DNA of 64,000 nt, from assembly GCA_965649765.1 (NCBI GenBank), contig OZ287748.1:106206001-106270000 (forward strand), in the 5' to 3' direction. How positions within the stretch are numbered: the stretch's first letter is position 1; each line of letters starts with the position of its first letter. Below the pieces are notes generated by a model. It saw only the letters and a list, made by a program, of their open reading frames with translations, made no database searches and had not been told where the DNA came from. This DNA is from Bispira polyomma. Its lineage: Eukaryota. Below, one piece after another: positions 1 to 46,137 of the stretch. The translations under genes were made by a program, and so were the position numbers.

Positions 1-143
1 TTCAACACAGTCCCTCAGGTAGCTTTGACAGGCGGTGGTACATTGCCAGTACTTGTTACAGTCATAGGCGTAAGGATGCAGGTCCTCCACACATTCTCCG
101 GGACCGGCAGAGTCACAGGTAAACTCCTGACTCCAGGACTGGC
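1..143 (-). CDS. Exon 2 (partial, runs off window) of secreted ChtBD2/peritrophin-A protein, paralog A
   Basis: Acceptor tttacAG at 145-144, phase 1. Translates (G)QSWSQEFTCDSAGPGECVEDLHPYAYDCNKYWQCTTACQSYLRDCVE, with the P-x-x-x-D-C-x-K-Y/F-W-x-C core. Aligns residue-for-residue with exon 17029-17229. Not in the ORF track. Confidence 0.85.
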
Positions 144-1799: not shown

Positions 1800-2640
1800 T
1801 TGTTATTAATATACAAAATTTATATAGCGCTTTATATATATTACTCTTAATTGCTTTACAGATTAATGGTTAACATATGTTGAATTGATTGCTTTTACAG
1901 GATGATTTAACAATAGGTGAGTCTAAAAAGATGTTTTGAGGGTGGTGTTTGGCAGACCATGCAGCAGCACATTGCCATAATCTAATCGTAATATTAGGTT
2001 GAACAATATAAGTGAACAATGGTTTTACAGACATCATCACATAAGTAATGACGAATGCGACTAATGTTTCGTATGTGGTAGTGACAGGCTTTGGTAACAA
2101 GGCTCACATGTTTCTGCATGGATAAGGTCTGATCCAGGATAACACAAAGATTCCTAACCTCGGGCTTAGCAATGACAGTTGCATCCCAAATAGTGACTGC
2201 GATATCTTGACATCTGTACTTTTGTGGAGAAAATGATCAATTCTGTTTTATAATTATTCAATTTAGCATATTGAGAGTTATCCAGGACTTAACCTCATCC
2301 ACAAATTTTTCTATCCTAGAGACAATACCTCCCAATTGTCTGTTGATGGTTTTAGTGCCATATATATTTGGATATCATCTGCATATATGTGGTACATAAG
2401 TCTATGTCGGTGTATGATGTCTCTAACTGGCTTAGTATGCATACAGTAAGATTTGGGTGAAAGCACAGAACCTTGTGGTACACCAAAATCAAATACTTGA
2501 TCTTTTGATGCAGCATCACTGATGGTTACGCACTGGGTCCTATTCGTGAGGTACAACTTATACCACTCCAGAGCCTGGCCAGTAATTCTGAAAGTATGTT
2601 TGAACCATGCAAGTAAAATACTATGATCTCTTGTTTTAAA
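1800..2640 (-). mobile_element. Degraded L2/CR1-group LINE RT fragment
   Basis: ORF 2311-2556: YLTNRTQCVTI...FGVPQGSVLSP...HIYADDIQIY (GVPQGS and YADD motifs). AAT-rich tail near 1800. Confidence 0.85.
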
Positions 2641-3978
2641 TGAATGGAGATGTTCAGTTTTTTATCCAGCGAAATAGATTATATCTCTTTTTACTATCGG
2701 CTAGCCCCCTGACATTCATACATCCAATTTTAATGAATCAAAACAAGTGGTATTATGTGTAGTCCATATGTGGTGTCCTCATATATTTCTTTTTATTATG
2801 TCATAATAACTTGTAATTTTTATATTCATGCATGTGTGTGTTTGTATGTATAGTTATGTTAAGGTTGAAAGTTTCAATCGTTCATATATATTTTTCACTG
2901 CACTGAAATAAAACAGTATGAAAGTTTAGAAAGGGTAACACTGGAGGCGTAGGGATCCAGTGTGTATGTGTATAGTTTCTCAGAATAGTTTATTTCACAA
3001 GTATTGTGCCACTGTATGTACATTGTATAATGAACAATTGATAGTATCTCATGGTAGTGACTTTTTGGGATGTAATGGCTTGTTTTTTTGTATTACTATA
3101 ATTTAATGAATAACAATTACCATATAGTAGAAGTTTACTTATTTGGCTGCCTGGACTATCTGGCTACCACTTATTTTTTATTATAGCAATACCAAAATGT
3201 TAGTGTATAAAAATATGAACTTTTACCAGTGAAAATCAATAACTATGGAATAACTAATATGAATTATACAAGAAAGTCTGAGCATCTTGAATGCTTTGTT
3301 TTTAGATGACTTTTGTTCTGAAGATTTAGTCAAAAAATCGTACATACATTCTTACTTAATTTTAGTCAAACTAATACAATCTAGACTATGAAAGTTAATC
3401 AATCTTCAACAATTTTACGTTGAAATACATCTTTTGATTATGCTATAAATGTTGCAAATAAACTTCATGAGGTTGTGACATTTTGTTTCTTGGTCATTTG
3501 ATTACCATAATAAGTAATAATCACTCCACTCTAATGACAAAACAAGTTAAATCTGTTTCACACGGATAGTCAAAATCCTGACCAAGATAAAAAACCTCCA
3601 CTCCCGCTACATGCTAAAAAATATTAGCTACAGATATGTAATATTCAGACTGATCATTTCTCTTAATATTTAGCAAGAGTCAAAAGTTTTTAGACGATTA
3701 ATTACTCAAAACATTTTTACTTAAAATTTAAAAAAGATTCAACAAGCTTGAAAAAGTTTAAAAGTTGATGACACAAAGTGTGACGATGTGTGTAGTCAGT
3801 CTCAATAACCTTATTGACAAACAAAACCAAAAAAACACTTGTTTAAAGTTTGTCTCTAACTAGTGAAAAAACCAAAACAATAACAACCTATGTTCAAAGT
3901 TGGTCTCGAACTTTCATAAGTGTGACTCCAAGTAAGTTGTTTCCCTTGTATTCCCTAGTTTGAATCTCAATGCAGTTC

Positions 3979-4869: not shown

Positions 4870-4909
4870 CAATCAAACTTAGAAGCAGGTAAATCCATGT
4901 GTGTGCCAT
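4870..4909 (-). CDS. Exon 1 (signal peptide) of ChtBD2 paralog A
   Basis: ATG at 4909-4907, MAHTWIYLLLSLI + G, then donor GTGAGT (4869-4864). 40 nt, phase 1. Joins exon 1-143 to give MAHTWIYLLLSLIGQSWS|QEF. Same length and phase as paralog exon 19505-19544. Confidence 0.8.
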
Positions 4910-6969: not shown

Positions 6970-8480
6970 TAACAGAAAGTCTATTACCTATCTTTAGGTC
7001 ACTGAAAGAAGAAGAGAAGCAAGGGATGTTGAGTGACTTTAAAGTGGTGACATTGATATTGAAATAATTTTATAGTGAATGGAAGGCCAGTGTAGTTTTT
7101 GAGGTATGAAATGACATTGGAAAAAATACCCTGCATAGATCGTTTTAAATGGATTGCAGCTTTTAATATATGACTTATTAACCCTAAATGAATGGGTATT
7201 GCAGAAGTCAAGGCGAATTCTTACAAGGTCATTAGCTACAGTTAGCATACCTTCGGTGTTTGATATTGTGATTTTTAATAGCAGTAGTAAAGGAATGTGT
7301 ATCCAGGGCAAAAAGTGGAGGCATGAAAACGGACCCCTGGGATACTCCATATGTTAAAAAGTTAAAAAAGATGAGAATTGATCATCTAATTAATTTGTTG
7401 TGCTCTAGGAGTGAAATAGGATCTGATCCAATCAAGAACAATCAAGTGCTATTAAGTCCATACCATTGATTGAGTGTGTCAAATCGTAAGCCGTGGTCAA
7501 TGGTGTCAAAGTCTGCTGAGCGATATAGAAGGGTGCCAAATTGATGAGAACATTCTCTGATATCAAAAAAAACAAAGGTCCAGGGGCAAGCAAATGGTCG
7601 TTACCAAAAAGCATCCTCCAGGAAAGAATGACCAAGGAGGAGCGCAGGCTAGTCTGAAAGGGTAAGTTTTGAGATGGCTTCTGAGACCAGTGATTGTATC
7701 CTGTGTTCTGACAGAAATTGCAATAGTCTCAGTGACTACTAATCATGGCATTTGCCTCCTGGACCGCAGTTTTAAGACTGAAATACCTGCATATTCTGCT
7801 CAGGTCATTTAGATGGCTTAACAGGCCCGGCAGACACTGGCTACATGACTACATGACTACTGTATGAATTGTCTTGGTCAAAGCAGGTATAACACCATCA
7901 TTCTTTAATTGGCTTCCTGGAGACACATTTTTGTCAAGGGGAATGATTGGGAAGAACGGTTTCAAACTGTCTTGAGTAGTATCATCACCTATAGTGATAT
8001 GTTTAGTGATAAGTACATTATTTTTACATCCCCATTACTTGCAGAAATGGTATGTAATACCAACTAACCCACATAGATAATATAAAACACATTTAAACGT
8101 GTTTAAAGGGTGCACACATTCTGGTTTTTTGATACTATTGGTGGAGGTGGTAATTTGACAGGGTTACAAAGTTAATGAGGGTCATAGATCTTTAAAAAGT
8201 GACCACTTTACTCACTTGAAAAAGGTCTATTGACCTTTGTGAATGAAAATCTTTCTTTTGTCAATAAAGCTTGGTTTGAACAAAATTGCCTCGCTTGTTT
8301 TCCAATTGGAATATGTTAAAATTATTAATTTGATACAAATGTTATCTTAAATGTTATTAAATAAAATTTTAATGAAAAGGTGTTTATTGTGATTGTCAGT
8401 CTTATTCATGGATGACCAGGGTCATATACCGATATTAAAAGTAAAGTTATGGGTTTATAGTCAATGTAGCTGACATTGGA

Positions 8481-8695
8481 GGGGCTGCAGTGGCCTAGGG
8501 TTAGAAGCACCTCTTTCACAATCACTGGTCTCTCATCAATGTGGGTTCGAATTCAATTAATTTCTCCATGTGGGAAAGTTTGTCAGGTATGGCTGCAGGT
8601 CGGTGGTTTACAGTGTCTGCATTGGTTTCTTCCAGCATTGAATCTGGCTATTTAATATGACCTAAACTGTTGAAAACTGTTGTAAATTCAAATTC
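8481..8695 (+). mobile_element. tRNA-headed SINE, related subfamily
   Basis: ggggctgcagTGGCCTAGGGTTAG (A-box-like) ... GGTTCGAATTC (B-box). Core tgtgggaaagtttgtcag...ggtcggtggttt is shared with the other SINEs. Confidence 0.75.
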
Positions 8696-8833: not shown

Positions 8834-9377
8834 TTATTCAGTGGAGTAGAGCTGTATTCCCAGGAAGTAGGTCAGCTTAGCTACACTGTCACCGACAAAG
8901 CTCGTCCTGGATTCGGCCTCAATCTTTAGCTGATCTCCAGCTGCAAAGGCCTGAATGTAGCCACGTGACATGCTGTCTACTCCAGTCTGGTAGCCATTTA
9001 CCCGGATGATATTAGCCAGGTGGTTTACATCATTGAGCACGAGTGTCAGTTCTACAGGTTGTTCACTCATGGCACCTGCCCCAAAGTGGATGTAGTAGAA
9101 ACCAGCAGAGTTGATGGTCACTATATAGGTATCTCTGTCATACAGGCCCCCTGCATTGATTAAAATGTCATCAAAGTCGACTGGTGAGAGTACACCTTCT
9201 AGAACACCACCGTCCCAGGAAGATGACCTGCTCACAAACCAAGCTTGAGGTGTAAGGAAGCGGGGCTGGACCAGGAAACCAGAGAATGAGGTCTGAAGCA
9301 AGCTGTCACTGGTGAGGGACCCACTGGTGAGGTAGTACTGGACTGCATCTCCCTGATTGAGGTTTAGTATCATGGAT
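8834..9377 (-). CDS. Exon 5 (last) of ChtBD2-3xC1q gene: end of C1q domain 2 and all of C1q domain 3
   Basis: Acceptor tctttAG 9379-9378, phase 2. AG|A restores ...DTLSR-SMILNLNQGDAVQ...QTSFSGFLV, then AWFVSR...VDFDDILINAGGLYD...AGFYYIHF...GDQLKI...TYFLGIQLY* (C1q motifs). Confidence 0.9.
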
Positions 9378-9674
9378 CTAAAGATAATGAAACACTTAAT
9401 ATCTGTGTTATATCAAGGAATCAAAGGTGGGCATCCATAAAAAAACCTAAAACAAGGAGGAGAAATTATATTTGAATTTAATTGATTCTAAATTTGCAAT
9501 AGAAATACAGTGATTAAACCATTTACTGTTATATCTAAGTCAAGTATCTAAATAGTTTTTTTTACAACCAATAGTCAAGTACAAATGCGTTATTTAGTAT
9601 TACGGTTTTTAAAGCTTATACTTTATGACGTGTCTGTGACTGTTCTGAATTCACGGTGTACAACTTATTAGTTG

Positions 9675-10300
9675 GTAGCAGACTGGACTACTGCAATTCA
9701 CTGTAAATTTTAAAAAAAAGACCTAAACAAATTGCAATGCATCCAGAACTCATTGGCACGTCTGGTCAGTTGTTCTGCACGGCTTTCAAATGCTTCACCG
9801 ATTCTGAAGTCACTCCACTGGCTCCCTGTTAGGTATTGGTGTGTTTTTAAAACTGCTACAACTGTATATAAGTTTCTCGATTCAGGTTTGCCTAAATACT
9901 TTGAACCACACTTGAGTTACTACAAGTGTAATGTCAATACCAAAAGAGCCGCTCCCAAATATAATTTCCTTCTTGTTCCAAAATATAAGTCCAAAGTACA
10001 CAGGTCAAAGGGTCACTTTGATAAAAGTTTTGCAAATGATGCCCCCAAACTATGGAATAGTTTACCTCAACACATTAGGACAGCTCTATCCATGTATTCC
10101 TCCGGCGCAGTTTAAAGACCTATCTGTTCAATGATGCATTCCCTCCATAGTCTCTTTCCTGTTCTCAGTGGACGCATTGATGACGACTTCCTTCTGTCTA
10201 TCACCTATAATTTTTGACTCTGGCTGTTTTTTTTTTTTGCGCTTTAGAATTCGTTACAACGAAAATAAGTGCTAAAATAGTCTGATATATTATTATTATT
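9675..10300 (+). mobile_element. L2/CR1-group LINE 3' fragment (intron 4 of C1q gene)
   Basis: SRLDYCNSL and LQCIQNSLARLV...ILKSLHWLPV...FKTATTVYK...APKLWNSLP motifs; (ATT)n tail. Confidence 0.85.
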
Positions 10301-10369
10301 AGGTACCTGTCTCATCTATTCAGTTTACCTTAAACTAACTGGGACAGAGTACTTGCATTATCACTCATT

Positions 10370-10765
10370 ATCATACTGTATAAAATACCAGTATTATCAA
10401 ACATTATTTCACCTGTATAAAATACCTGTATGATGACTCACTATCTCACCTGTATAAAATACCTGTATTATCACTCATTATCTTAACTGTGTAAAATACC
10501 AGTATTATCAGTCACTATCTCACCTGTGTAAAATACCTGTATGATGACGCACTATCTCACCTGTGTAAAATAGTTGTATTATCACTTATTATCTCATCTG
10601 TATAAAATACCTGTATGATGGCACACTATCTCACCTGTGTCAATACCTGTATGATGACTCACTATCTCATCTGTATAAAATATCTGTATGATGACTCATG
10701 ATCTCATCTGTACAAAATACCTGTATGATGACTCATTATCTCATCTGTATAAAATACCTGTATTC
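10370..10765. repeat. 37-bp minisatellite, ~10 copies (tgatgactcactatctcacctgtataaaatacctgta)
   Basis: Tandem unit read directly. One more degenerate unit lies at 11625-11660 on the far side of the LINE. Confidence 0.9.
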
Positions 10766-10766
10766 T

Positions 10767-11622
10767 CAGAGGGAGAAGTTGAAAGCACGGTTTCCAGTTG
10801 ACATCCTGGGTAGCCCTTTCAGCCAAGCTGATTCTGTCAAGAACCTGAGTATATGGTTTGACTCTGACTTTTCCTTTTCTAAACACGTTCAGGGTGTCTG
10901 CAAAAGTTGTTTTGTGCAACTCCGGGACTTTAGACTTGTCAGGCGGTTTCTCACTTATGATGCTTCTATACTTGTGGTCAATGCTTTTGTCAGTAGTAGA
11001 CTGGATTACTGCAATTCACTTTTCAGGAGTCTCTTAAAGTTTAATTTACATAAATTACAATGCATTCAAAATAGTGCAGCTAGAATTGTGTCAAATACCA
11101 GTCGATACACCAGTATAACTCCTGTTCTTAAGAAATTGCATTGGCTCCCTGTTGAACAGCGTTCAGTGTTTAAAACAGCTACACTTGTTTATAAGTTTCT
11201 TCACACTGGTTTTTAAAAGTATTTTGCCCCATATCTTTTCTCTTACAGTAGTTTCTGTCATATCAGGCGCAGTCAGAGTGGTAGCAATTTCTTTGTTGTT
11301 CTAAAGTTCCACCCATCTACTCAAAAGTCAGTTAAACAATTTGGTCACAGCTTTGATTTTGATGCTCCCATTGTTTGGAACGCTCTTCCTGATGTGATTC
11401 ATGCTTCCCCCTCACTAGCCTCTTTTAGAAAGCAGCTTAAAACCCACTTGTACACCAGAGCATACCCACCTTAGTCTCAATCATCCCCCGGCGCGCTCTG
11501 TGGTGCTCGACCCTTTTCTGTCCCTTGATATTGGGAATTGGATTTCTGTCTTTTGTGCTGTTGCGCCTTAGAGTCTCCTTCGTTAAGAGGAGATTAAGTG
11601 CTATAAAAGTCTAATTACTATT
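10767..11622 (+). mobile_element. L2/CR1-group LINE, 5'-truncated, inserted into the 37-bp array
   Basis: VKNLSIWFDSDFSF...LVVNAFVSSRLDYCNSL...LQCIQNSAARIV...LKKLHWLPVEQRSVFKTATLVYK, followed by 3'UTR and short tail. Confidence 0.9.
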
Positions 11623-11677
11623 ACTTACTCACCATCTCAACTGTATAAACCATCTATATTAAAACGCCTAGACTCAC

Positions 11678-12350
11678 CTGCTGAGGGTGTCTGTGTTATC
11701 GTGTACTGTGTGCTGTCTTGTCAGCTGTGCCTGGACAGCACCATTGACCTGAATATCCACATTCAGGGTAGTGCCCCCTACAGCCCCTGCACTCACTGAC
11801 ACCAAATACAGCCCGGCTACTGGTGCAATGTACGAGCTTGTGCTACCCACAAAGTCATCATTCGTGTTCACACCAATAGTATCAAAGTCAACAACGCCCA
11901 CACTGCTAAAGCCAGATGATCTACCAACACTAAAGACGGAGACTGTTTCCATGGAATTGTGTAAGCTGAATCCTCCCCACGATGTCTGCTGTTGGTCATC
12001 GCTATAGTAACCACCTGCTGTCGATGTGACATGGAATGGGTCATCAGTCGTTAGGTTTGCAATCAGGTCCCGACTCACAGTATCTTCTCCGGAGTGAACT
12101 TCTGAGTCCCGCAGGACGTTGGCAAACTGCCCGAGAAGCCCGGGAACCTCAATACGGTAGTTGACACCCGAGTTAGGACGAAGACCAACATTGAGGTTGA
12201 AGAAATAGATTCCCGGGTTTGGTGTCGTAAAAGTGTTTTCATCTGCGTTAAAATCATTGTGTCTGTCACATATAATGGCTTGATAATCCACTGGGTCTTG
12301 ACGAATGACGCGACTGGTAACTCTGGTCACATAGAAGATGGTGGGATCCA
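11678..12350 (-). CDS. Exon 4 of ChtBD2-3xC1q gene: C1q domain 1 and most of domain 2
   Basis: Acceptor ccttccAG 12352-12351 (phase 1), donor GTGAGT 11677-11672 (phase 2). C1q motifs FTTPNPGIYFFNL, QTSWGGFSL, VVDFDTIGVN, YIAPVAGLYLVSV. Confidence 0.9.
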
Positions 12351-13081
12351 CTGGAAGGCAGAATACAATATTGACTTGGACACATTGAGATAATACAAGA
12401 TCCAATATAATGTATCAATATAAAATAGATCCAAGGAGTGGCATTAATATACAAAATGGAAAGAAATATTAAGAAATAATTTTTTGTATGCTAACTGTAG
12501 GCAATGCTATTTTCAGACAGAATTCTTTACAATCACGAACAGTAGGACTTATATGTTGCTCTACCACTGATACAAAGTGCTACTCCATAACCCCTAGCAA
12601 ATACTTTCATTGTAAACACAAATTTCTAAAAAAACACTTTTGATGAAAACATTTACAAAATTAAAAGTATACATTATGGCACACAAGCCATCATCGCCCA
12701 AACCCCCATCCCTCAAGCAAAACGGGAATTTTAGATTTAGATTTGAGATTTCCTCCTGCAAATACTGCTACTACACCCAGGTCCAGAGATGTCTATATAT
12801 TCATGGTGCCTGTATTTGCTGCTCAAAGCACCAATTCTACCGTTATGTGACTACACAAGTACAACACCAGTATAGGCCGCCAAACAAATCACAAAAGGCT
12901 TGCCAAAGGTTCTTTGTCTAAACACAGGACCACCATTTTATCTGGTCATCAGAGTTGCTGGCATTATCCTACTGCTCCATATTAGCATCGAACCTACGTC
13001 TATGTCGTTTGTGAGTCGACTTGAATGCCAGACAATGCAGTCACTGTGCTACATATTAGACCAGAGTCGCGCTGTACTTAC

Positions 13082-13240
13082 ATGGTGGACCTGAAGAAAT
13101 GGTTGTTGTGGGCTGAGTGGTGGTTGGTAAGGTAGTGCTTGACGCAGTACTTTCTGGAGTAGGCTGAGTAGTGGTTGGTAAGGTAATGGTTGAAGCAGTA
13201 CTTTCTGGAGTAGGCTGAGTGGGGTCCACAGTGGTAGTCA
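13082..13240 (-). CDS. Exon 3 of ChtBD2-3xC1q gene: Thr/Pro/Ser-rich linker with internal 18-aa duplication
   Basis: Acceptor ttacatAG 13242-13241, donor GTAAGT 13081-13076, 159 nt, phase 1-1. VTTTVDPTQPTPESTASTITLPTTTQPTPESTASSTTLPTTTQPTTTISSGPP. Confidence 0.85.
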
Positions 13241-13692
13241 CTATGTAACAGAGAAATGTGTGGGTGTTTTAGTCATTATTTGTTATGATCATTTTGTATT
13301 TATTTATTTATTCAAGTTTATACACATAGTACACTATTTTAAGAACAAAAATACAGAAATAGAGAATTACCAATACAAAATTCAAATAAATAAAACGAAA
13401 TACAATCATACATATAAAAGGGTTAAATAATAAATCAGTGCAAGTTACAGCAAGTTATAGCATAAAATACTCCTTTATTGGATGAATATTAATTAATCCG
13501 GAAATTATCAATTAAATCAATTAATTCTTTCTCGGTGAATCAAGTGTTACAATTCTCTTATTTTCTTATTTTAACTGATCCATTAGGTTGAAAAATATTT
13601 ATCATAATAATTCGATTAAAACTGACTCTATCTCTGTTTCTCAGTTGTAATACCACAGGCATGGAAGCTGCAACATGCCTAGAATAATTATG

Positions 13693-14212
13693 GCCTGGTC
13701 ACACCTACACGTACTAACGTCTCACAATGTAGCAAGCAAATAAACTGAAAATGTGATAGCTTTGTTTCCATTTTTTAAAAAGGGGGAGTCACTTGTGACG
13801 TTTTTATGACGATGTACAAACACTTTACTGGTAGGATATCACTACCTACTACTACGTAGAGCTACTATACTGCTACTTACTGATGCGTTCTGCTACTAGT
13901 AACACTTTCCACGACGGATACATACAAAGGAAGATGATTTAACTACTTACCTCTATTTAATACTACGTTAGGCTACATTATGCTACTTATACAGACGAGT
14001 GGAGACGTCCTCGAGAAACATAGAGCTCTGCTCTGATTGTTTTAAACAGTTTGAAACAATCGTGGTAGCAGACCAACATATATCATCCGTTAAGCAACAT
14101 CACGGAACGAACGCACCAGGGATCATCACTTTGGCACTATCCTCTACTACGTTTCCAAACAGGTCCAAATGTCACACACACGTAGCTCCAGCATGTGTAG
14201 GTGTGACTAGGC
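13693..14212. mobile_element. MITE with ~18-bp TIRs (possibly PIF/Harbinger-type); partial second copy at ~54330-54613
   Basis: gcctggtcacacctacac ... gtgtaggtgtgactaggc are inverted termini. Internal aacgaacgcaccagggat...cgtagctccagca recurs at ~54495-54612. Confidence 0.65.
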
Positions 14213-14699
14213 ATGTAGAGATTGCAAATCGTTCACTTATGACTATTGATACTATTTGTATGGCACCCAAAGACACTGGTGTTTTCAGACAAAGAACAGA
14301 CCTTCAACATGGCAAACATCACAAGGGAATTGTTGGGAGTTGAACTACTGGTGTTAATGAAACCAGACCATTACCATAACCGCCTTAGGCCATGAATATA
14401 TGAGACAAACTATTATCATATTTTGTTAATTGTAACTCACAAGCCTTTTTTAACCTACTACTAGATTTTGAGATATATTTAGGATCTCAGGGCTTTTGTT
14501 GACAATCACAGTTTTGATTCAGCAACTTACAATGATCATACTCTAATACATCAGTTCAAGTTCCTCAACTAACTCTCGTTAGCATGCAACAACGCATCTA
14601 TACATGTAGTCCATTATATGGTCTTACATATGGTGCATCTTTGAAGTTGACATAAACAGAAGTACTTCTTTAGCAAAGTGTTTGGATTAATGTACCTGT

Positions 14700-15190
14700 A
14701 AAACTGGATCAAACCCCCGTTGATATGTTAATTAGAAAGATCTCTGAAGTAATTGATAAGAAACTTTAGGAGAAACTGGAACCAAATAACAACAAAACTT
14801 GCAAATAATGAATAACTCTGTGCGATAAGCATTAAATGAAAACTAAGTAGATTAGTGCAATTGAGGAGCAGTTGGAAGACAAAGACAAGCTATTGGTCAC
14901 TGGGAAACTAAAATAATACATTTGAAACATCAAAAAAAGCTACTTGAAAAAAAAACTGTTGGAAAAAGTTGAAAATGTACATGAACAGACAGAATGTGAA
15001 ACTTTTGAGGTATCCCAGAGAAAAGAAATGAAAATGTGGAAGAAAAATTGTTGAAGTAATTCTCAGTATATAGTGTAAACTTATCAGAACTGGATATCAT
15101 CGGTGCACACAGATTGGTACTATTGAAAACTAAAGGGACAATATCAGTTATTGTCCATCTGAAGGACAAAGCATTGGTGTTTCAAAAGAC
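14700..15190 (+). mobile_element. Degraded LINE ORF1-like fragment
   Basis: Broken frame reads ...GIPEKRNENVEEKL...LDIIGAHRL...IVHL, resembling the coiled-coil/RRM region of non-LTR ORF1 proteins. Confidence 0.45.
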
Positions 15191-16439
15191 CACCATTAAT
15201 AGCTTAACATCGTAGGCTAAAGGTCAAGACATACAGGCCCGATCCAGAAATTGGATCCGTATCATTATGAAACAAAAAAACAACAGTGCAAGCATTCATA
15301 TTGAAGACGGATCTGCTGATCCCGGATAAAAATGGGCATTTCTAATTTGTGACGAATCCATATCCGGGTCCCTACCAAGCACATGCAAAGTAGCTTAAAA
15401 TTTCACATACATAAACACTAAAATTATAAGCAAAAAAGATTTATGGGTGCACACACAAAATTTTTTTTAAATTTGTGATGTAATCAGTTATTGCAAAAAA
15501 CGTCAAATGTGACGGCATTAAAGTGGGTCAAAGTATTCTCTATCGTTATAGTACAATTACTGTCCATCGGTGGCGATGTGGTTCAATACTTTGACTGTAA
15601 TCAAGTTTGTTGTGTTCTATTCTTTACACATAATCATCCAATCCTTTTGTTTGACAATATCGCTTTATAGATTAATTATGACACATACATCAGGGTTTGT
15701 AACAGCAAAGTAGCCATCTGCTAAATTTAAACAAATTTGCTCAACAAAAAACATAATTGCAACAAACAAAAATAACCCAACATCATACAGAATGTGAAAT
15801 AATACAAAACCTCAAGGAATGGAAAGCTCAATCAAAACAGTCTGACCCGACTATTGTACAAAGACCTTATACGATTTGTGCCAAGTCTGTGTGTTTGGTG
15901 ATCTACTAAATATGTGCCTTGAAAACAATTGTGTCAACAGTGAACTTAAAAGTTATTTGTTGGGGCAACGCAAGACACACCACAAAGTGAAAGATCTCAA
16001 TAATAAGCTGAAGTTAATTCAAAACTTATAACGCAATGGTCGATATTGTTCAAAGTACTGTAATGTTTCTTGACATTATACACAAGCACTTACAAGTAAT
16101 CAATATATACTACCATATTGGATACACTGCTGGAAAAAGTATTACTGGACCTGGAATCTACAGAGATTTGAATTGTGTGACGTCACAATACAATGTTTAG
16201 TTTTACCATACTTTGCTTATTTTATCTCACTTTTTTGTCTTGCAATATCGAACCAATATGTATACACAGGGTGAAATGTAATACATTTTTATAGTGTGAC
16301 GTCAGAACACAATTATCTGTATATGGTTTAATAACATAATGTATGGATATGATGAGTTTTTACAGAACGCCTACACTGATGCCTACACTGATGCATTTCT
16401 TGGGAGTTGGAAGATTTGATCTACCATCACATGACACTG

Positions 16440-17028
16440 ACTCCCATCACTTGACATGACTATCCGTCTGTCCAACTACATTGACACATGACTATCTGTC
16501 CATCTACATTGACACATGACTACCTGTCTGACCAACTACATTGACACATGACTACCTGTCTGACCAACTACATTGACACATGACTACCTGTCTGCCCAAC
16601 TACATTGACACATGACTACCTGTCTGTCCACCTACTGTGGCACATCTACCTTGACACATGACTATCTGTATGTCCATCTACCTTGACACATGACTACCTG
16701 TCTGTCAATCTACCTTGACACATGACTATCTGTATGTTTATCTACCTTGACACATGACTATCTGTATGTCCATCTACCTTGACACATGACTATCTGTATG
16801 TCCATCTACCTTGACACATGACTGTATGTCCATCTACGTTGACACATGGCTACCTGTCTGTCCATCTACCTTGACACATGACGATTTGTATGTCCATCTA
16901 CCTTGACACATGACTATCTGTATGTCCATCTGCATTGACACATGACTATCTGTATGTCCATCTACGTTGACACATGACTATCTGTCCATCCACCTACATT
17001 GACACATGGCGTCTGTCTGCCCACTTAC
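16440..17028. repeat. ~32-bp minisatellite, ~18 copies (ttgacacatgactatctgtatgtccatctacc), abutting a splice donor
   Basis: Period of 32 bp read directly (16747, 16779). The first unit overlaps the exon 2/intron 2 junction. Confidence 0.92.
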
Positions 17029-17229
17029 CTTGGCACATGGCGTCCACTTGATGCAGACAGATGAGATGTGTAGCGCTGAAGTGTAGTGTAGCTGGGCAGT
17101 CCATGAGGTAGGCAATACATCCGTCTGTACACGCCCAGAACTTGGTGCAGTCTGCAGCATAGGGATACTCTCCCTCTTGGCAGGGGCCAGGACTCCCAGG
17201 ACAATCAAACTCCTGGCCTGATGTACAGG
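17029..17229 (-). CDS. Exon 2 of ChtBD2-3xC1q gene: chitin-binding type-2 domain
   Basis: Acceptor gtgttcAG 17231-17230, donor GTAAGT 17028-17023, 201 nt, phase 1-1. QEFDCPGSPGPCQEGEYPYAADCTKFWACTDGCIAYLMDCPATLHFSATHLICLHQVDAMC has the DC.KF..C / CP..L.F.....C pattern. Confidence 0.9.
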
Positions 17230-17289
17230 CTGAACACAAAAAGGTAAAACATCATCTACAGTAAACATAGACCTGGTCTGGGACGTTCT

Positions 17290-17700
17290 TATGTCAGCAG
17301 GTAGCTGGGGGCCGCCATCTTGTATGATAGGTCTAAGATGAACCATTTAGTGAGTGTAACTTTCTTGATATTATTCATCATAACATATATTTTGTATTAT
17401 TGTGGTTACTGTTATATTTGTTTTATATTTATGATTAATATATTTCTCTCTTTTTGGTAGACTGGAAAAAGTTTGAAGAATTAAATAATTAATTGATGTA
17501 GAAATACAATGTTTTATGTTGAATACGCTAAGACCACTTTTTTATATCTGGTAAGGTGTCAGTGAGTAGGTCAAATCACTAAGTGAAACAGTTGCTACTA
17601 AAGCTAGGAATGTCAATAGGAACCGGAATAGACCCGCCAAAGTGTTGGCACTTAAAGAAGCCTCTGACCTGCCTTTTGTATAGGCTATTTTTGTTGGGGG
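17290..17700. mobile_element. Unclassified interspersed repeat, related copy at ~55340-55740
   Basis: Shared ggggccgccat...gttatatttgt...aattaattgatgta.aaataca...ttttatgttgaa..gctaa segments. Confidence 0.55.
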
Positions 17701-18164
17701 GCATCAAATGTTTGCAGGTTTCTACTGAAGGAAAATTTTTTAGAACACCGAAAACTATAGATCACCAAAAAACACAGCAGTTGAGGAATACCTGTGCTGG
17801 AATAAAATAAATAGTAAGCAACAAAGAGTGCTTACAGAAAAAAAAAACATTCTAACGTATTACTAGTAACTAAGCTTTTTTATTATAACTAGTCACTTTG
17901 TTTAACTGAACATTATTTCCAACTGAAATAGGCAGAATGGTAAAATGCCATAATGTTTATCCTTTTCAACAATGTCTTTGAAACGTTTGTTTAAACCAGA
18001 GCTTTTATTGTATGTGTTCCTATTTTGTCAGAAAAAACACTGGCATGATATTTACGTTTCAAAATTTACAGTTTATTCAGTTCATGTACCAGTGGTGATT
18101 TCAACCCAATCACATCAGACTTTTACGTTTGTAAACTCTATATAAGCATCTAGTATCTAAGGTC

Positions 18165-18390
18165 GGCTTTAGTGTATTGGTAACCCACTCACCTCCCACC
18201 TCTGTAGTCGTCGGTTTGAAGCCTAACCAGGGCCTGTGTATGTTGGAAAGTTACAAGTCGATTTACTGAAGGTGGTTTGCAAAGCAGAAACCCAGACTAA
18301 CTACCTTGTTCTGACTTCCTCCACCAGTGAGCTGCCTTTGTGATCTCACACAACACTGATTGAAAGCCACTTTAAACCCAATACTAAATC
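18165..18390 (+). mobile_element. Diverged tRNA-headed SINE
   Basis: A-box-like and B-box-like (ggtttgaagcct) head; core tgttggaaagtt...ggtggttt...ttcctccacca; tail ttgaaagccactttaaaccc. Confidence 0.55.
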
Positions 18391-19144
18391 GAAGGCACAA
18401 CAAAGGAAGTCTATTTAAGTTGTCAGATTTAGCCATTTCATAGAAAAGGATCATAACAAGGGAAATATTGCTACTACAAGATACCAAGAGAGGATAATAT
18501 AATATGGAGTTTTTGAGTTTGTGCCAAAAGGAAAGAGACACTTGAATTGGAATTGAATTGGGTTTTTGTCTCTTTCAACTGCTCAGGGCATATCCCGATG
18601 GTCATATTTAATGGTGACGGAAACCAGAGCGAAAGCCACTGTAAACCACTGATCTATGGCAAATACCTTACAAACTTTCCCACAAGAACAAATAAACAGG
18701 TTTTGAACCCACATTAGTGAGTTATTTTTGACATTAGAACTCATCGGAATTCTCATTGACAGAAGTTGCAGGAAGTTCCTGCAACTTCTGTCAATGAGAA
18801 TTCCGATTCAAAACCTGTTTATTTGTTCTTGTGGGAAAGTTTGTAAGGTATTTGCCATAGATCAGTGGTTTACAGTGGCTTTCGCTCTGGTTTCCGTCAC
18901 CATTAAATATGACCATCGGGATACTGAGCAGTTGAAAGAGACAAAAACCCAATTCAATTCTAATTCAAGTGTCTCTTTCCTTTTGGCACAAACTCAAAAT
19001 CTCCATATTATATTATCCTCTCTTGGTATCTTGTAGTAGCAACATTTCCCTTGTTATCATCCTTTTCTATGAAATGGCTAAATCTGACAACTTAAATAGA
19101 CTTCCTTTGTTGTGCCTTCGATTTAGTATTGGGTTTAAAGGTGG
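18367..19144. repeat. ~780-bp near-perfect inverted repeat with central perfect 65-bp palindrome
   Basis: 18370-18707 is the reverse complement of 18807-19140, with about five differences. 18743-18774 pairs perfectly with 18776-18807 around a single G. Confidence 0.95.
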
Positions 19145-19504
19145 GTAATTTGGTGTTAAGAGCTGTGGCTTAAGATAATGAAGAATATGGTAAAAGAATT
19201 ATACACATCGCACTAATATAAGAAAGTAATGACTTAAAAATAAAACTCTAATAAACTAAATTATCCCGCTTGGTGGCGGTGTATAGATTACGTGTATGTG
19301 TAACTTGCGCATGGTACGTCATTACAACATCCAATCAGGTCAGAAAGACTATTTCTAGAAAATGATGCATACCACAGTGATAAAATGCCATCAACAACTT
19401 TATCTAACCGAACAAAATAACAATAAAACAAAAATGAATAAATGTTATTTTTAAATTTACAAAAAAAAGCCAAAAAACATGTTGCAATAGTTGTAATTTC
19501 TCAC

Positions 19505-19544
19505 CCCAGATTGCTAGCAGTGTAGTGTAGGTTAACCAAGTCAT
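19505..19544 (-). CDS. Exon 1 (signal peptide) of ChtBD2-3xC1q gene
   Basis: ATG 19544-19542, MTWLTYTTLLAIW + G, donor GTGAGA. 40 nt, phase 1. Gives MTWLTYTTLLAIWACTSG|QEFDC. Total CDS 40+201+159+673+544 = 1617 nt, divisible by 3. Confidence 0.82.
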
Positions 19545-19647
19545 CTTTGTGATGTGCTGAACTGTGTGTGGAGAGGAATGTTTGCCAGTAAAAACTGGTG
19601 GGAAACAGGACAGCAGTTGATTGTCACATACACAAGTAGAAAGGGGC

Positions 19648-20899: not shown

Positions 20900-23300
20900 A
20901 AAACATCAGTTTACCTAGTTGGTGGTGAGAAGGTCAGATATAGTTTTTGACCTGATTGATTGTGAAAGGTCAAATTGAAGTCCATGAATTCTAAAGTTTC
21001 TGATATGGTTGATTTAGTGAAGAAATCTAATGAAGTTTGAGATATTTTATTTTACATGTTTCTCTACTGCTATTTTGTGTTTGCAGTGCAGAATGATGGT
21101 TTGTATCTGAATGTGTCAATGAAAGAGGGAAGCCAAATTTCAAATATTGTATCAGTAATTTGTCTGGATAATCTTTAAGTACTCTTTCCCATCCTTCAAT
21201 ATTTAAGCCAGATATAATAGGGATACGTGCCTCCTTGTAATTTTGGCATCCTGTTTCTTTAATTATTTTGGCTCAGTCATTTAGGAAACAGAGCAAATCT
21301 CAATAGGACATCTATCTGGTCCTTTGAATTTGAATTCTGTCTGAGAAAGAAGTATAAAACCCTTAGTTTTTTCTGGTGAATTAAAATCTTTGACAACCTG
21401 TGTGTGGTGAGATTTCAGAAAGTTGTTTGGAGAAGTCGGGCGACGCCAGCATGAGATTACCATTGGCATTTAATACATTGTAATTGTTAGTACAGTTAGA
21501 TTCACAAGACGCGTTTTGTGTTACATCTGTCTCCCATTATCATCATCTCTCTCAATTAAATTTTCTATAATATTTGACATGTGCTTTGTATAGTCATGCC
21601 CATATTCATCTATGCATTTCTGATATTACTTAAAATTTTTGTAAGTCTGTTTTTTCAAACTGATCTCAGCTTTATCTCTCTGATGTATCTCCCTACAATT
21701 CATACATTCCTCTTCTAGTCATAGTCATACCACTGACTACCAGGGTTATATCTTTGGATATAAAATCCAGCCAAGCCACCTTTAGTGGATCCTTATTTTG
21801 AACATGACAAAAGGACCAATTTGTGGCAGAAACAGTAGCAGTGACTAACTTACTATCAGAATTTGCACAGTCAATGTTATTATCTGACTTCATTACTTCA
21901 AATACTGGGCTGCTCTGGAATATATGATCATTACAGGTGTTAGTTACATAAATATTTTCATCAGTATCTGGATTATTGTGCTTACTGTGAACATAATGCA
22001 CCCTGTGATTTAGATTTTTCTTATTTTCATAATCGCCCCTTCAGATTTCTGTTTCTGTTTGGCCAATATTTCTATATGACCACAGCATTTACTATAACCA
22101 TTATATATCAAATGCTCACTAGAATAGCTTGCCACATTTAATTCATTATTATTATTGTCATATACTTTCTCTAGAAATAATTCAGATCTAGACTTATTTC
22201 TATCATTTTTCTTTAACTTTCCATTGTCATTGTCAATTAATTCACAAAACTGTTCATTCTTAATACCTAAACTGTCTTCATACTGCTTACTAAAATTGCC
22301 TTGATTTCTCACCCTAAACTTATCGGTTCTGACCTTAACACTCACTTTCATTGTCACGTTTTCTGGTCGACGGCCAGCATCCTAACTATTATTTAAAGTT
22401 CCGTCCCCCGCTTGCTTGGCAGAATTTGCCCTATAACATTTCAACTCTGGATGTGTGGCATCCTTCTTCAGTACTGTTGCACAGTGCGAACAGTTGTGCT
22501 TATATTGAACGTGGCCGGTACGATGGGAGAGTTGAAAAGCTTGCAGATTGTTTTGCCGGAAGTAGACATCTGTAAGTTGGACGAGAACACGCCTGTAAAA
22601 TGAGTAGTAGACGGATTGACCATAGCCATCTCTGATGCGCTTAACCGGTTCAGGGCCCACTGGGTGGTATCGTTCCATCCAAGTCACCCCCCTCCACTTT
22701 GTGCATGCTGAGAGACCATGCCCTTCGCACCACGTCCCAAGGTAGTGAAGCCGCATCCCTAAGTGACAGCACAACCTGCTGGATCATATCAAGGGAGACT
22801 TGCTGACCACTGTGGCAAAGTTTAGTTATCGTACATTGGGCGTTTCCGACAAGCACCGCCCACTCACCCTTCATTGACCAATCTAAACCTTGGTTTGGTA
22901 ACAGTAATGTCCTGGTTATTGAAATGCCCAAACTGTTGAAGCTTTCCTTGAGCAAGTGCGCACTGGGCATGGGCCTCATACTGAGCAAGTCGTTGGTTCA
23001 CCATGGCCTGTACGTCGGGGATGGCTTTCAACATCTCCACAGAAGGAACTATCCTGTACCATAAATATTGCTGTTGATTCGGACCTTGCAGCTGCGCTGT
23101 GCTACTGTTTTGAGAACGTGACCTGTCCCTGACTGGGGGGAACAAAGTATAATATAGTTCTGATAACATTTCCGAGTTAAGCTGTTTGACTTTTGATGCT
23201 CTCATTGCCTTTCCTTTCGTCGTACTCTTGCTAGTGGTTACTTTGTTGCTGTTGTCCTTGTGGTTTGCCCCATAGTATTACCGTTACATGTATAGAAGAT
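20900..23300 (-). mobile_element. Truncated DIRS/Ngaro-type retrotransposon (gag plus start of pol)
   Basis: Broken gag: VEMLKAIPDVQAMVNQRLAQYE, SLRDAASLPWDVVRRAW, C/H-rich CSHCATVLKKDATHPELKC. At ~21120-21240, ARIPIISGLNIEGWERVLKDYPDKLLIQYLKFGFPL is typical of the DIRS-group pol N-terminus. Gag resembles that at 34068-35051. Confidence 0.7.
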
Positions 23301-25753: not shown

Positions 25754-27058
25754 ATGCACTGTTTACTATCAGTGTTTATCGTAATCTTTTTATACCTCTT
25801 TAGCTGTATCTCGGCTCATCGTGTGATACTTAACACTAGGGAGAGGAGCCCAAACGTCTCCTCCAAGTACAGTGTGGCTGGAGGACAGTGTTGGTTTGAA
25901 CAGCGTGTAGACCCTTTGCCACAGGTAGGAGATCATGACGTCGCCATGGCATCGGTAACCCTAGAGGAATGCCAGCTGTGGTGTGCTTACGCCTTGGGTT
26001 GGGACTGCCTCTCACTAAAATACACAGCACATACACAAAGGTGTGAGCTGAGCTCAACAAATCCAGAAGAGCCTCTTGCTGAAGACATAAACATTGTCTC
26101 GGATGTTGACAAAGAGTTTTGGGAAAAGAAGTGCAGCGGTACGGTCGAGGAGGGAGCAGGAGCTTGCCCAGGAGGATATTTCTCTTGTAAAGATAATGGA
26201 GTGTGCGTGGACACAAGTCTGGTGTGCGATGGAGAAGCCCAGTGTTACGACAGTTCTGACGAAGAGAACTGCGCTGACTCTGCTGCTACCACCATGTCAG
26301 CCAGTGTGGAAGATGAAGAAGACGAAGAAGCCAGCTTCTGCTGGGCAGATGAGTTCCGCTGTCCGGGTACCGCTTCTTGTTTAAGTAAGATACTGGGATG
26401 TGATGGACGAGTAGACTGTCCTTGGGGTGAAGATGAACGGGGCTGCCTGTCTACTTGCCCAAGTGCGAAGAAGTTTAGCTGCAGGGATAGCAAGCGATGC
26501 ATTCCAGAATCATTGGTCTGTGATGGCCTTAACGACTGTACAGACGCTAGTGATGAGACAGACTGCGCCTACCACTGCAGGGAGGGCCAGATGCACTGCG
26601 AGGGATCTTCTCAATGTATCCCTGAGTGGTGGGCCTGTGATGGACAGAAGGATTGCGAAAATGGAGCTGACGAATTGATGGATTGTCAGGACAGCCAAGT
26701 CAAGCCTCAGTGTAAACAGGCCGAGTTCACGTGTAAAAAGGTTAACGTTTGCATCTATAAAAAGAGAGTATGCGATGGACACATCGATTGCCCCGATGGC
26801 TCGGACGAAGAGGGCTGCGGCCCTAAAAAGTGTCCAACTCACGAGTACCTGTGTCCAGACACCAAGAAGTGTATACCAAAGTTCTACCTCTGTGACTATG
26901 ACGAGGACTGTCCTGGAGGCGAGGATGAACTAGATTGTGGAGTGTGTCAGCTGACCAAAGAGTTTACCTGTTGGACCTCCGGCAGATGCATCCCCATCTC
27001 CTGGAAGTGTAATGGCTATCAAGACTGCAGCGATAGCTCAGATGAAAAGGATTGTTAA
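25754..27058 (+). CDS. Secreted protein: signal peptide, PAN/apple domain and seven LDL-receptor class A repeats (single coding exon)
   Basis: 434-aa intact ORF. Hydrophobic N-terminus. PAN-like TLEECQLWC...CLSLKY...CELS. Seven 6-Cys modules each ending in an acidic SDE/EDE/ADE...C motif. No transmembrane segment. Confidence 0.93.
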   Translation: MHCLLSVFIVIFLYLFSCISAHRVILNTRERSPNVSSKYSVAGGQCWFEQRVDPLPQVGDHDVAMASVTLEECQLWCAYALGWDCLSLKYTAHTQRCELSSTNPEEPLAEDINIVSDVDKEFWEKKCSGTVEEGAGACPGGYFSCKDNGVCVDTSLVCDGEAQCYDSSDEENCADSAATTMSASVEDEEDEEASFCWADEFRCPGTASCLSKILGCDGRVDCPWGEDERGCLSTCPSAKKFSCRDSKRCIPESLVCDGLNDCTDASDETDCAYHCREGQMHCEGSSQCIPEWWACDGQKDCENGADELMDCQDSQVKPQCKQAEFTCKKVNVCIYKKRVCDGHIDCPDGSDEEGCGPKKCPTHEYLCPDTKKCIPKFYLCDYDEDCPGGEDELDCGVCQLTKEFTCWTSGRCIPISWKCNGYQDCSDSSDEKDC

Positions 27059-31609: not shown

Positions 31610-34600
31610 TGCGGTAATATTTTTATTAGTATGACTAGGATGTTATATCTAACATTGAATATATACGGTTTCAGCTTTACAGCATGGGATCAACTTAAAC
31701 TGGTCACCTTAAGTTAAAATTTTGAAATTGAGGCCACCATTAGGTGACCTTAAATTAAGTTAAGTAGGGCCAGGATGAGGTGACCCTAATTTAAGTTTAG
31801 AATAATTTAGAAGAGGTAAGGGGGACATTTGGTGGCCCTAAGTTCAGTTTAAGCATACCAAAAGGTAATCTAACAGAATTTGAAGATATAATCTAAATGA
31901 TTACATTATGTATTAAAGTGTAAGTTGACCTTATGCCCAGGACAGTGTGTACCGTCCAGTTTTATATTTTATTTGACATTAAAGTTGTATATATTATTTA
32001 TTCAGCTGACCAGAGGCCAGAACACCAAACCCAGAGACGCCTAGGAGTTGGGCTGTAGGGTTTCCTGAAAGAATCAGCAACCTGGGAGCCAAGCAGAATC
32101 TTTAATATACTGCCAAACGCAATCCGACATCTAGGTGCCATGACGTTGAATGTCCTGGACATTGACGTTATTGTTGAAAGCAAATGTGGTACCCGAACGT
32201 CGGAACGCATGGAAGGTCAGATTCGCCTACTGGCAACCAAGCAGCTGGAGAACATTCTTCAGGTGTCTCCTAACACGGGTATCAGTCAAGGGGCCCCTAG
32301 TACTACCAACCTTGTACTGAAAAAGAGGTGCATTGGGGTCAGTAGGGGTTAATGTTAATGCATTCCTGAGAGTCGCCACTGGACACAGGCTGGAGTGGGG
32401 GATAACTGGAGTAGTTAACAGTCTAATTGCGTTGTTTGACTGTAAGGTTTTAGATCATTTAATTAACATTACATAGCCTGGTTTGAACAGGACATCACCC
32501 CTAGCTAGGTGCTTTAACAGAGAAAATGCCGCCACAGAGTGGGGGCAAAGATTTGATAATCTCAAAAAACTAAAGAAACTAGTCAAATAGATAGCCTTAA
32601 AGATCTGGCCCATATAGGTGCTGTCACATTTAGCTACCAGAGCAGTAAGGAGAGGGATATCGAAAATGTTCTTAAGCTTAGCTGGAGTGGTCTGTGAATA
32701 ACCAGAGCTCGATTAAAGTATGAAATTCTGGGGTCTGCAAAGCAGTCCACATTAATATGAAACAGTATACATTTGGCTTTAATTGCTGACAAGTGATTAG
32801 CTATTTGAGAGGCCGACATTGAATTATAGTTCAGTAATTCTAAGAAACAAAAGAGTCTAAGTACAGTCACCTGAGTGGGGGCCCAGTTGATAAAGGCCCC
32901 AAAGGCAATGAAGATTCTGAACATGCTGTCGTAAGCCCTGGCTGTGGAAGCCGCAAAAGCAAAGTGGAGCCTTTTACAGGCCCGACTCGTCAACAGAGAG
33001 TCCAAAGGGTGGAGAGCTGTAACATATTATAAACATAACATACATTATATGTTATTATCAAGTTGCAGGAATGTGGCGTCTACATATAACCATTCCACAG
33101 GACCTGCCCACTGAGCTAGTATTTGACTGTTATTACAGGTTTTGTCCCAACGTGAGAGGAGATCAGCAATTTTATTTTTGACACCAATAATATTAATCAC
33201 CCTTTTGTCAATGTCAAAGTGACTAGCCCCCATATAGATATTTCTTGTGTATGAGGCCAATACGGGGTCTTGGGTTCGCCCAGTTTCAAGCATGCTAACT
33301 ACAGCCTGATTATCGCATTTAAACAGAACTTTCTGTCCCCGCCAGGCACTAGACCATAGTTTTAATGCAACAAGAATATTAATCATTTCGAGTGAGGCAA
33401 TATTGTCCTCAGTCATATTTTCTGGAACTTTAAGCTTGTAAACTTGAACCGTTGGACACCATTGAACCGTTGGACACCATTGAACCGTTGGACACCATTG
33501 AACCGTTGGACACCATTGAACCGTTGGACACCATTGAACCGTTGGACACCATTGAACCGTTGGACAAATGTATAAAACCAGTTAAGGTCCTTATTAAAAT
33601 CTCGGGTTACTTTAAATCTGTTTCTGACAGGTGGGAATTTTCCCCTCACACCCTCAACTTTCCTTTGTTTTAAATCACAGTTTTGTTTTTTTATTTTGGG
33701 CGATAGAAACAAAGGAGGGCCGACATCTGTCCAGAAATTTCACACCTTTGCTCTGAGTGCCCTGAGACCTTCCAGTCTTCACATTATAAACATCTTACGT
33801 GTTGTTTCAATACCAACTTTTGAAATGGGCTTTTGGCTGAAGTTTCTGTAATGTTAGTACATGGTTTAATATTCTGATACTTTCTATGTACATTTTGAAC
33901 AGCCTCGCTGTAAGAACAACGAGTCTTTTTATCTCGATTATATGCAACCATTTTCTCTCTAACTGACTTCTTGAATAAGTGAGCTTCCTGAAAGTTGGAA
34001 TTATAAAATTCCCTACTAAAAACTGAATTGTCCACTGAATTGTCCACTGAATTGTCGCAGTGGCCACTTAGTTTTTTGCCCTTTTTTTGCTGCATGTGTT
34101 GCTTTTATGTGCGCCCCCACACGACTCGCAGACATGCTTAAAGTATGTATTGCCCGTTTTGTGGCTGCTTGGGAATTGGCATGAACCATCCTGGTAAAAC
34201 TTGCAATTTGCTGTACCCTGTTTGTTAACCGAACCACCATTTTTACTACCAGCCCGGCCAGCATTATTGTGGTTAGAATTGGCACTTGAAATGTGTCTTT
34301 GAGCGTGGGCTCTTCTGAGCCTGTCGAGTTTATCAACATCTGACAACTTATCCATCTCTATTTGTGTTAACACCACAGCATGGCATGCTTTCGCAGTTTC
34401 CCACAAAAAATCCTCCCAATCTTCCATAAGGTTCGTCATGTATTCAAGCATGGTTTCCCTTGTGGAATTCGACTTTTCATCTTGCACAATTCTAAGGACC
34501 GAAAACTATCTGTTAATATGTGGTTTTAAGGCTACTTAACTAAACGTTTCACAACAACATCTACAACCCCCCCCCCCCCCCTTTGGGATTTTAATTTACC

Positions 34601-45990: not shown

Positions 45991-46137
45991 AAAAACAATT
46001 TTCATGTACATTTCCACATGCACAGGCGTCGGGTTCATTGTATCACCCGGTCTGTATTAGCCACGAAAACGTCTTAATAACGTCACAGTGGATAATAAAA
46101 TATCAGAAAACAAACTAAGAGCAGCTTCTGATTTCAG

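Follow-up and report, generated by a model that had tools for sequence, protein, structure and literature searches.

What kind of protein carries a chitin-binding-type (CBM14) module ahead of three C1q domains in one chain, and how would such a chain work? The question is raised by a gene on the minus strand of a 64,000-nucleotide (nt) stretch of Bispira polyomma DNA (GenBank assembly GCA_965649765.1, contig OZ287748.1, positions 106,206,001 to 106,270,000), referred to below as the window, with positions counted from its first letter. The reading that we favor, with a probability of roughly 0.45, is that of a matrix-anchored recognition or adhesion protein that would work in the manner of the VCBPs of Ciona and amphioxus.

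The five coding exons (Table 1) are separated by introns of 2275, 3788, 731, and 2300 nt, all with GT-AG borders and pyrimidine-rich acceptors and in phases 1, 1, 1, and 2; joined, they form a coding sequence of 1617 nt that translates into 538 amino acids (aa) followed by a single terminal stop. The exon coordinates and the in-frame product given in a preliminary description of the locus proved exact. GC content is 45 to 55% in the exons versus 35 to 38% in the introns. Searched exhaustively with HMMER, exon 4 matched 321 proteins at an E value of 0.001 or better, of which the best 150 were listed, and Pfam was run on 42 of these 150 first matches. The phase-2 join of exons 4 and 5, which the preliminary description had placed within a C1q strand, was upheld by relatives: 110 of 152 span the junction in their best alignment, and five exon-limited relatives (P0001, which is 78% identical to exon 4 and terminates at the identical exon boundary, and four others) all end after one shared motif, the codon following it fitting a phase-2 GT donor in each. 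A blind scan of positions 9378 to 19504 returned 10 candidates for open exons that are in phase 1 and have strong splice signals. Nine of them overlap exons 2 to 4, mostly as exons 2, 3, and 4 or nested same-frame variants of exons 3 and 4, with one out-of-frame variant over the exon 4 region and one over exon 3; the remaining candidate, at 18193-18265, matches no domain. The blind splice scan and profile searches revealed no additional C1q or CBM14 exon inside the gene, and no other C1q exon was found in the window by profile searches of all six frames. Judged from the sequence, these data confirm the five-exon model as that of a real animal gene.

The weakest element of the model is the predicted signal peptide, the hydrophobicity of which is moderate (best 9-residue mean, 1.77, versus 2.9 to 3.1 in Capitella homologs). 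It is supported by the tandem paralog directly downstream, in which the first coding exon is likewise 40 nt long and the CBM14 acceptor is also in phase 1. A survey of alternative first exons gave seven hydrophobic ATG..GT candidates on the minus strand between positions 140 and 25000; none is otherwise supported except the paralog's own, and the others comprise two in an upstream GT-rich repeat and four in intron 2 (15295, 13923, 13771, and 13413).

Domain searches agreed with the layout of the preliminary description, in which a CBM14 domain, a Thr/Pro linker, and three globular C1q (gC1q) domains with no collagen region share one chain. Pfam scored exon 2 as CBM_14 at 39 bits (cut-off, 22.1; E value, 9e-10) and found C1q (PF00386) in two stretches each of exon 4 (64 bits) and exon 5 (46.4 bits; cut-off, 23.7). 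A profile built from relatives delimited three complete gC1q domains at residues 137-265, 271-396, and 402-536, mutually 24 to 29% identical. Between module and head, residues 81 to 134 form a stalk with 21 Thr, 10 Pro, and 7 Ser (38 of 54 residues) that is probably O-glycosylated. No run of three or more Gly-X-Y triplets, as expected of a collagen tail, occurs in the 538-aa protein, which in this respect differs from complement C1q and the CTRPs (C1q-like type I) with their collagen Gly-X-Y tails. Pfam matched only C1q/BclA_C and CBM_14 and gave no match to immunoglobulin (Ig) V domains.

The same full layout is present in three Capitella teleta proteins of 509 to 539 aa, CAPTEDRAFT_223944 (536 aa, P0052 among our relatives), 223943, and 190519, annotated as 'hypothetical' and, in UniRef, as 'C1q domain-containing protein'. 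These homologs resemble the Bispira protein in their signal peptide, in an 8-cysteine CBM14 variant with last spacings of 6-12-7, in a Thr/Pro stalk, and in the three C1q domains, whereas they are only about 27% identical to it; they are uncharacterized. Their CBM14 scores are marginal (22.8, 28.6, and 18.3 bits versus the cut-off of 22.1). At the level of predicted proteins, the CBM14 plus triple-C1q fusion thus has independent support from three Capitella records. The consecutive numbering of 223943 and 223944 suggests tandem genes, as at the Bispira locus.

The preliminary description had called the pairing of CBM14 with C1q unfamiliar, and in part this was right. No CBM14 plus C1q protein is described in the literature searched, which was mostly open-access and is represented here, as are all papers cited below, by the parts covered (including PMC8878817, PMC6409975, PMC6368272, PMC11312191, and PMC8789280); the pairing was, however, already on public record in the 'hypothetical' Capitella proteins. 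The CBM14 fusion is apparently undescribed, but the triple-C1q part belongs to smultiC1q, a named class of secreted multi-C1q proteins with 21 genes in Crassostrea virginica, mostly of three domains (PMC6835236), and multi-C1q proteins have been reviewed (PMC10672478). The Bispira chain, with its three domains over residues 137 to 536, agrees with the definition of that class as having multiple, usually three, C1q domains per chain. The bivalve members HcC1qDC6 and CfC1qDC-2 are likewise secreted, with three tandem gC1q domains and no collagen (PMC5519582, PMC6835236, and PMC10672478), whereas CBM14 is not reported for them and the word 'chitin' is absent from the main texts of these three papers as covered. 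One oyster smultiC1q entry does have a cysteine-rich N terminus and a Thr-rich linker ahead of its C1q domains (PMC6835236, supplement). Oyster SUEL/C1q proteins and gastropod QREPs also place an extra binding module N-terminal to gC1q (PMC6835236 and PMC8878817), but the module differs, and QREPs combine C1q with one or two Ig domains and have no triple head. Altogether, the architecture appears to be a domain-combination variant, present in public Capitella records and undescribed, rather than a new kind of system.

Domain counts, linkers, and structure prediction supported the single-chain pseudo-trimeric head proposed in the preliminary description. Among the 152 relatives, three domains occur in 92, six in 1, two in 55 (all of them 349 aa or shorter), and one in 4, while four or five occur in none; the six-domain relative, P0002, consists of two triplets in one chain with a Thr-rich linker between them. 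Adjacent domains are separated by a median of 4 residues (5 to 95% range, 1 to 6; n = 167), and 3-residue linkers are reported to give an undistorted single-chain C1q head, the termini meeting at its base (PMC4774423). In 233 of 243 domains (81 three-domain proteins), the nearest relative lies at the same position in another protein. By this measure, the head is an old triplication with position-specific interfaces.

An AlphaFold2 model of P0052 (mean predicted local distance difference test [pLDDT] score, 90.9; predicted template modeling score [pTM], 0.79; stalk disordered) superimposed on single-chain adiponectin 4dou with a Z score of 50.3 (2.0 Å over 376 residues) and on single-chain C1q 5hkj with a Z score of 48.1 (2.5 Å over 387 residues), compared with 20.3 or less for single domains, and Foldseek gave a template modeling (TM) score of 0.85 of the target for both 5hkj and 4dou. 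The model of Bispira exon 4 itself (pLDDT, 93.8; pTM, 0.87) fits trimer chains with both domains at TM 0.72 to 0.79 and a root-mean-square deviation (RMSD) of 3.7 to 6.0 Å, the best being the Cbln1 trimer chain 5kca (TM 0.79 over 241 columns), versus about 0.5 for single domains. In the same model, the predicted ten-strand jelly-roll fold matches the C1QL1 and caprin-2 domains (TM, 0.83 to 0.84; RMSD, 2.1 to 2.5 Å). A predicted complex of exon 4 with domain 3 from exon 5, computed with alignments unused, scored 0.30 against a mark of 0.34 and was given no weight in either direction. Several points weigh against a closed head in the Bispira protein: its domain 2 is among the 10 exceptions in the position test, the whole-head trimer model is that of the 27% identical homolog while the protein's own model covers domains 1 and 2, and the engineered structures, dating from 2012 to 2016, may have been among those on which the predictor was trained. 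Nonetheless, closure of the three domains into a single-chain pseudo-trimeric head is well supported by computation.

The engineered adiponectin (4dou), C1q (5hkj), and Cbln1 (5kca) chains share three gC1q domains per chain, short linkers, and the same predicted geometry, whereas they are laboratory constructs, of which the Bispira family would be the natural counterpart. The PDB matches obtained include no solved natural single-chain structure with three gC1q domains, an intramolecular trimer in natural multi-C1q proteins is likewise undescribed in the literature searched, and the word 'trimer' is absent from the HcC1qDC6 paper as covered (PMC5519582). The family also departs from adiponectin at one motif, where Asp-Gln-Ala-Ser-Gly becomes Asp-Thr-x-Ser-Arg. 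Arg takes the place of the Gly in 66 of 81 proteins at position 1, in 46 at position 2, and in 62 at position 3, and the Bispira domains keep the Asp in all three while Thr or Ser replaces the Gln. We take the Asp-Gln motif to be the apical calcium site of adiponectin; that the family-specific Arg affects calcium use is speculation.

These features lead to the following proposal. The gene would encode a secreted, monomeric, two-ended binding protein with a CBM14-type module, a 54-aa stalk, and three gC1q domains that fold together into one asymmetric C1q-like head, each face of which could carry its own specificity. With a head closed within a single chain, neither collagen nor a coiled coil would be needed. 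The CBM14 module may hold the protein on a chitin-containing matrix, whether the gut peritrophic layer, mucus, or a different chitinous secretion, from which the stalk would project the head, which may bind microbial or host glycans; we infer the ligands at both ends, as well as the tissue. The annelid peritrophic matrix contains chitin (PMC6109156), and each domain of the mussel triple-C1q protein HcC1qDC6 binds bacteria, lipopolysaccharide, and peptidoglycan (PMC5519582). Three further CBM14-type exons in the window, one with a long Thr-rich mucin region, were also counted in favor of matrix anchoring. A functional precedent is that of the VCBPs, which are likewise secreted and join a chitin-binding domain, at the C terminus, to a separate recognition module. 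In VCBPs, the recognition module consists of Ig V domains, not gC1q, and binding to chitin-rich gut mucus and to bacteria through separate domains has been demonstrated experimentally (PMC4757023 and PMC6414549), whereas the Bispira protein is known from sequence. By this comparison, VCBP is an analogue built from unrelated parts, not a homolog.

The strongest competing explanation assigns the protein no immune role and makes it a structural cross-linker that bridges chitin fibrils to proteins in the tube, chaetae, jaw, or a cuticle-like layer; the C1q head would then mediate protein interactions, as NC1 domains do in collagens VIII and X. In the siboglinid Paraescarpia, ChtBD2, VWA, and TSP1 are joined to LamG in tube proteins (PMC8476170), and relatives P0127 and P0147 combine the triple-C1q head with CBM14, TSP1, or VWA from the same toolkit (2xCBM14+TSP1+3xC1q in P0127, VWA ahead of the triple head in P0147). 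Both CBM14 and C1q occur commonly in the shell matrix of molluscs (PMC6368272), and an acidic protein, as this one is (isoelectric point [pI], 4.3), would suit such a role. On the other hand, no C1q protein was found in the parts of the Paraescarpia tube proteome covered (PMC8476170), and a single compact head offers low valency for network building. We consider cross-linking unlikely, yet worth serious attention.

A second explanation accepts the CBM14 fold and denies that it binds chitin: with its additional disulfide, the module would bind another glycan or a protein, such as a receptor or mucin, and the protein would be a soluble lectin or signaling ligand with a second, non-chitin specificity. 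This bears directly on the matrix-anchored reading and on the tethering to chitin that the preliminary description had proposed. When aligned with tachycitin and CHIT1, the module shows the six canonical cysteines and an extra pair. The following points count against chitin binding. The equivalent of CHIT1 Trp465 (tachycitin Trp55) is His73 here and Asp, Asn, and His in the Capitella homologs, so that in all four fusion proteins this Trp is absent and the extra cysteine pair is shared; neither P0127 module has a Trp or Tyr after the fifth canonical cysteine, the equivalent of Gly453 is Thr, the module is acidic (pI, 4.2), and the homologs' Pfam scores are marginal, as given above. Trp465 is described as highly conserved in CBM14 and has the strongest effect in CHIT1, its loss most impairing or abolishing chitin binding (PMC5459812 and PMC4844120). 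In favor of chitin binding, the Bispira domain itself scores 39 bits, the pocket equivalents Pro451 and Leu454 are kept, and other exposed-type aromatics are available (Tyr34, Tyr36, Phe44, Trp45, Tyr54, and Phe64). In addition, His can stack on sugars. By sequence, the module thus belongs to the CBM14 fold family and fails its best-known binding feature; tethering is uncertain because the Trp465 equivalent is missing from the Bispira protein and all three homologs, and we estimate the odds that the module binds chitin as a little better than even. Loss of chitin binding in favor of another ligand seems to us rather improbable.

It is very unlikely that the domains pair between chains into oligomers or networks instead of closing within one: lone HcC1qDC6 domains do bind ligands (PMC5519582) and structure predictors favor known trimer geometry, but the strict three-or-six counts, the 4-residue linkers, the position-specific conservation, and the confident closed models all oppose it. 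Equally hard to credit is a main transcript that does not join exon 2 to exons 4 and 5, either as separate genes or through usual skipping of exons 2 and 3, for although these exons are symmetric (phase 1-1) and can be skipped in frame (471, 485, or 418 aa), intron 2 contains four ATG..GT candidates at chance level, and the Capitella join itself apparently comes from gene predictions, three independent Capitella records share the order and cysteine pattern, exon 4's frame has no Met before residue 268, and no other CBM14 or C1q exon lies between exon 2 and exons 4 and 5.

How the fusion arose was approached through its relatives. The CBM14 profile matched 4 of 155 proteins, and a crude test, which failed to recognize the Bispira protein itself, detected a signal-peptide-like start in 13 of 82 full-head proteins; we claim no frequency for the fusion because most records are N-terminally incomplete. 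When longer relatives were sought with exon 4 in a word-indexed search, 0 of 1491 candidates passed, a result overturned by the exhaustive HMMER search, and a word-indexed search with an 82-row alignment revealed no new CBM14 fusion among 8 matches from 8000 candidates. P0154 and P0155, which cover 6 to 9% of the query, were ignored as relatives. In the ESM Atlas, exon 4 retrieved C1q clusters, including a 377-aa cluster in which the commonest phylum is Annelida; with P0052, neither a feature match nor, by structure, a CBM14+C1q cluster was obtained, an outcome that is evidence of neither absence nor novelty. One relative, P0057, has a recent, separate triplication (74 to 79% internal identity) behind a coiled-coil-like region. 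In trees of the C1q region (83 rows in a quick tree, 34 of them in a careful one), the Bispira protein falls unresolved near the base, and the Capitella fusions are nested in a group of 10 rows that has good support and in which some proteins show no CBM14. Grouping of the Bispira protein, the three Capitella fusions, and P0080 as a strict clade was rejected (approximately unbiased [AU] test, P = 6e-5), while the Bispira protein as sister to the whole 10-row group was not (P = 0.32); the tested clades were fixed after the quick tree was seen, so these P values are indicative. The shared eight-cysteine module points to either a single old fusion or repeated capture by phase-1 exons.

A broader proposal is that annelids independently evolved a VCBP-like barrier family, old and so far undescribed, anchored in chitin matrix and bearing a natural single-chain heterotrimeric C1q head with Arg near the calcium site, in which phase-1 exon shuffling plugs the head in behind CBM14, TSP1, or VWA. 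We hold this to be doubtful, with a real chance of being correct. If true, the family would be a major part of a small annelid C1q repertoire, with at least three Capitella fusions where one survey counts 7 C1qDC genes (PMC8476170). The preliminary description had spoken of C1q expansion across lophotrochozoans, which was over-general: the expansion is reported for bivalves (PMC8878817), and Table S11 of PMC8476170, with species read from its abbreviations, lists 121 to 360 C1qDC genes in four bivalves versus 1 to 9 in annelids (its first five columns; 7 in Capitella). Multi-C1q proteins have so far been studied domain by domain, and the modeling evidence suggests that the working unit is the closed three-domain head. 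Such a head would be a natural version of the engineered C1q and adiponectin single chains and might serve as a scaffold whose three faces evolve independently. If the module binds chitin, the protein would be a convergent annelid counterpart of the protochordate VCBPs and a candidate for microbe handling at a chitinous gut or mucus barrier; if it does not, it would represent a non-chitin CBM14 subtype and a caution against reading function from a Pfam label.

Table 1. Parts of the Bispira gene and of its tandem paralog, in window positions
Feature	Position	Strand	Remarks
Probable 5' untranslated part of exon 1	19545..19594	(-)	Acceptor-like pyrimidine tract and AG before it; inferred by direct reading
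Coding exon 1	19505..19544	(-)	40 nt, ends in phase 1; most of the predicted 18-aa signal peptide; aligned to Capitella N termini, paralog exon equal in length
Exon 2	17029..17229	(-)	201 nt, phase 1-1; last part of the signal peptide, then CBM14/peritrophin-A, 8-cysteine variant
CBM14 cysteines, Cys 23-79	17033..17203	(-)	Within exon 2
Exon 3	13082..13240	(-)	159 nt, phase 1-1; Thr/Pro/Ser stalk with internal 51-nt duplication
Exon 4	11678..12350	(-)	673 nt, phase 1-2; encodes gC1q domain 1 (11956-12342) and, from 11940, the first two-thirds of domain 2
Exon 5	8834..9377	(-)	544 coding nt; rest of domain 2 (to 9263), then domain 3 (8843-9247) and the stop codon
Candidate polyadenylation hexamers	8383..8656	(-)	ATTAAA at 8656, AATAAA at 8388
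Tandem paralog, first coding exon	4870..4909	(-)	40 nt, phase 1, hydrophobic; directly downstream of the gene
Tandem paralog, CBM14 exon	1..143	(-)	54% identical at the aa level over 41 aa; shares acceptor phase and cysteine pattern; truncated at the window edge

Beyond its first two exons, the tandem paralog lies outside the window. Counting the two minus-strand genes, four CBM14-type exons occur in the 64 kb. The other two, at 44749-45010 and 46119-47780 on the plus strand, score 16.6 and 17.3 bits, under the Pfam cut-off, and the second leads into an 11-residue Thr-rich repeat that spans about 450 aa, as in a peritrophin/mucin-like gene. Elsewhere on the plus strand, an intronless open reading frame (ORF) at 25754-27058 encodes a secreted protein that combines a PAN domain with seven low-density lipoprotein receptor class A repeats and in which no membrane segment was seen, and a 212-aa ORF at 51589-52224, without a Pfam match, contains many Tyr-x-Asp-Val type repeats and could be a cytoplasmic tail exon.

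Remains of mobile elements and repeats are scattered through the region. By eye, decayed reverse transcriptase fragments resembling long interspersed nuclear elements (LINEs) lie within intron 4 (9714-10112 and 10695-11213, plus strand), and similar LINE-like fragments with RVT_1 matches lie in the paralog's first intron (1276-1581 and 2314-2661, minus strand). ORF fragments at 32637-35066 and 21696-23277 on the minus strand have no Pfam match and are, from their appearance, presumably remains of DIRS-type retroelements. A DDE_Tnp_4 transposase fragment is present at 61851-62204 on the plus strand. Intron 1 contains an apparent long inverted duplication (18575-19100, by eye), and minisatellites are located at 10350-10770 and 16420-17040.

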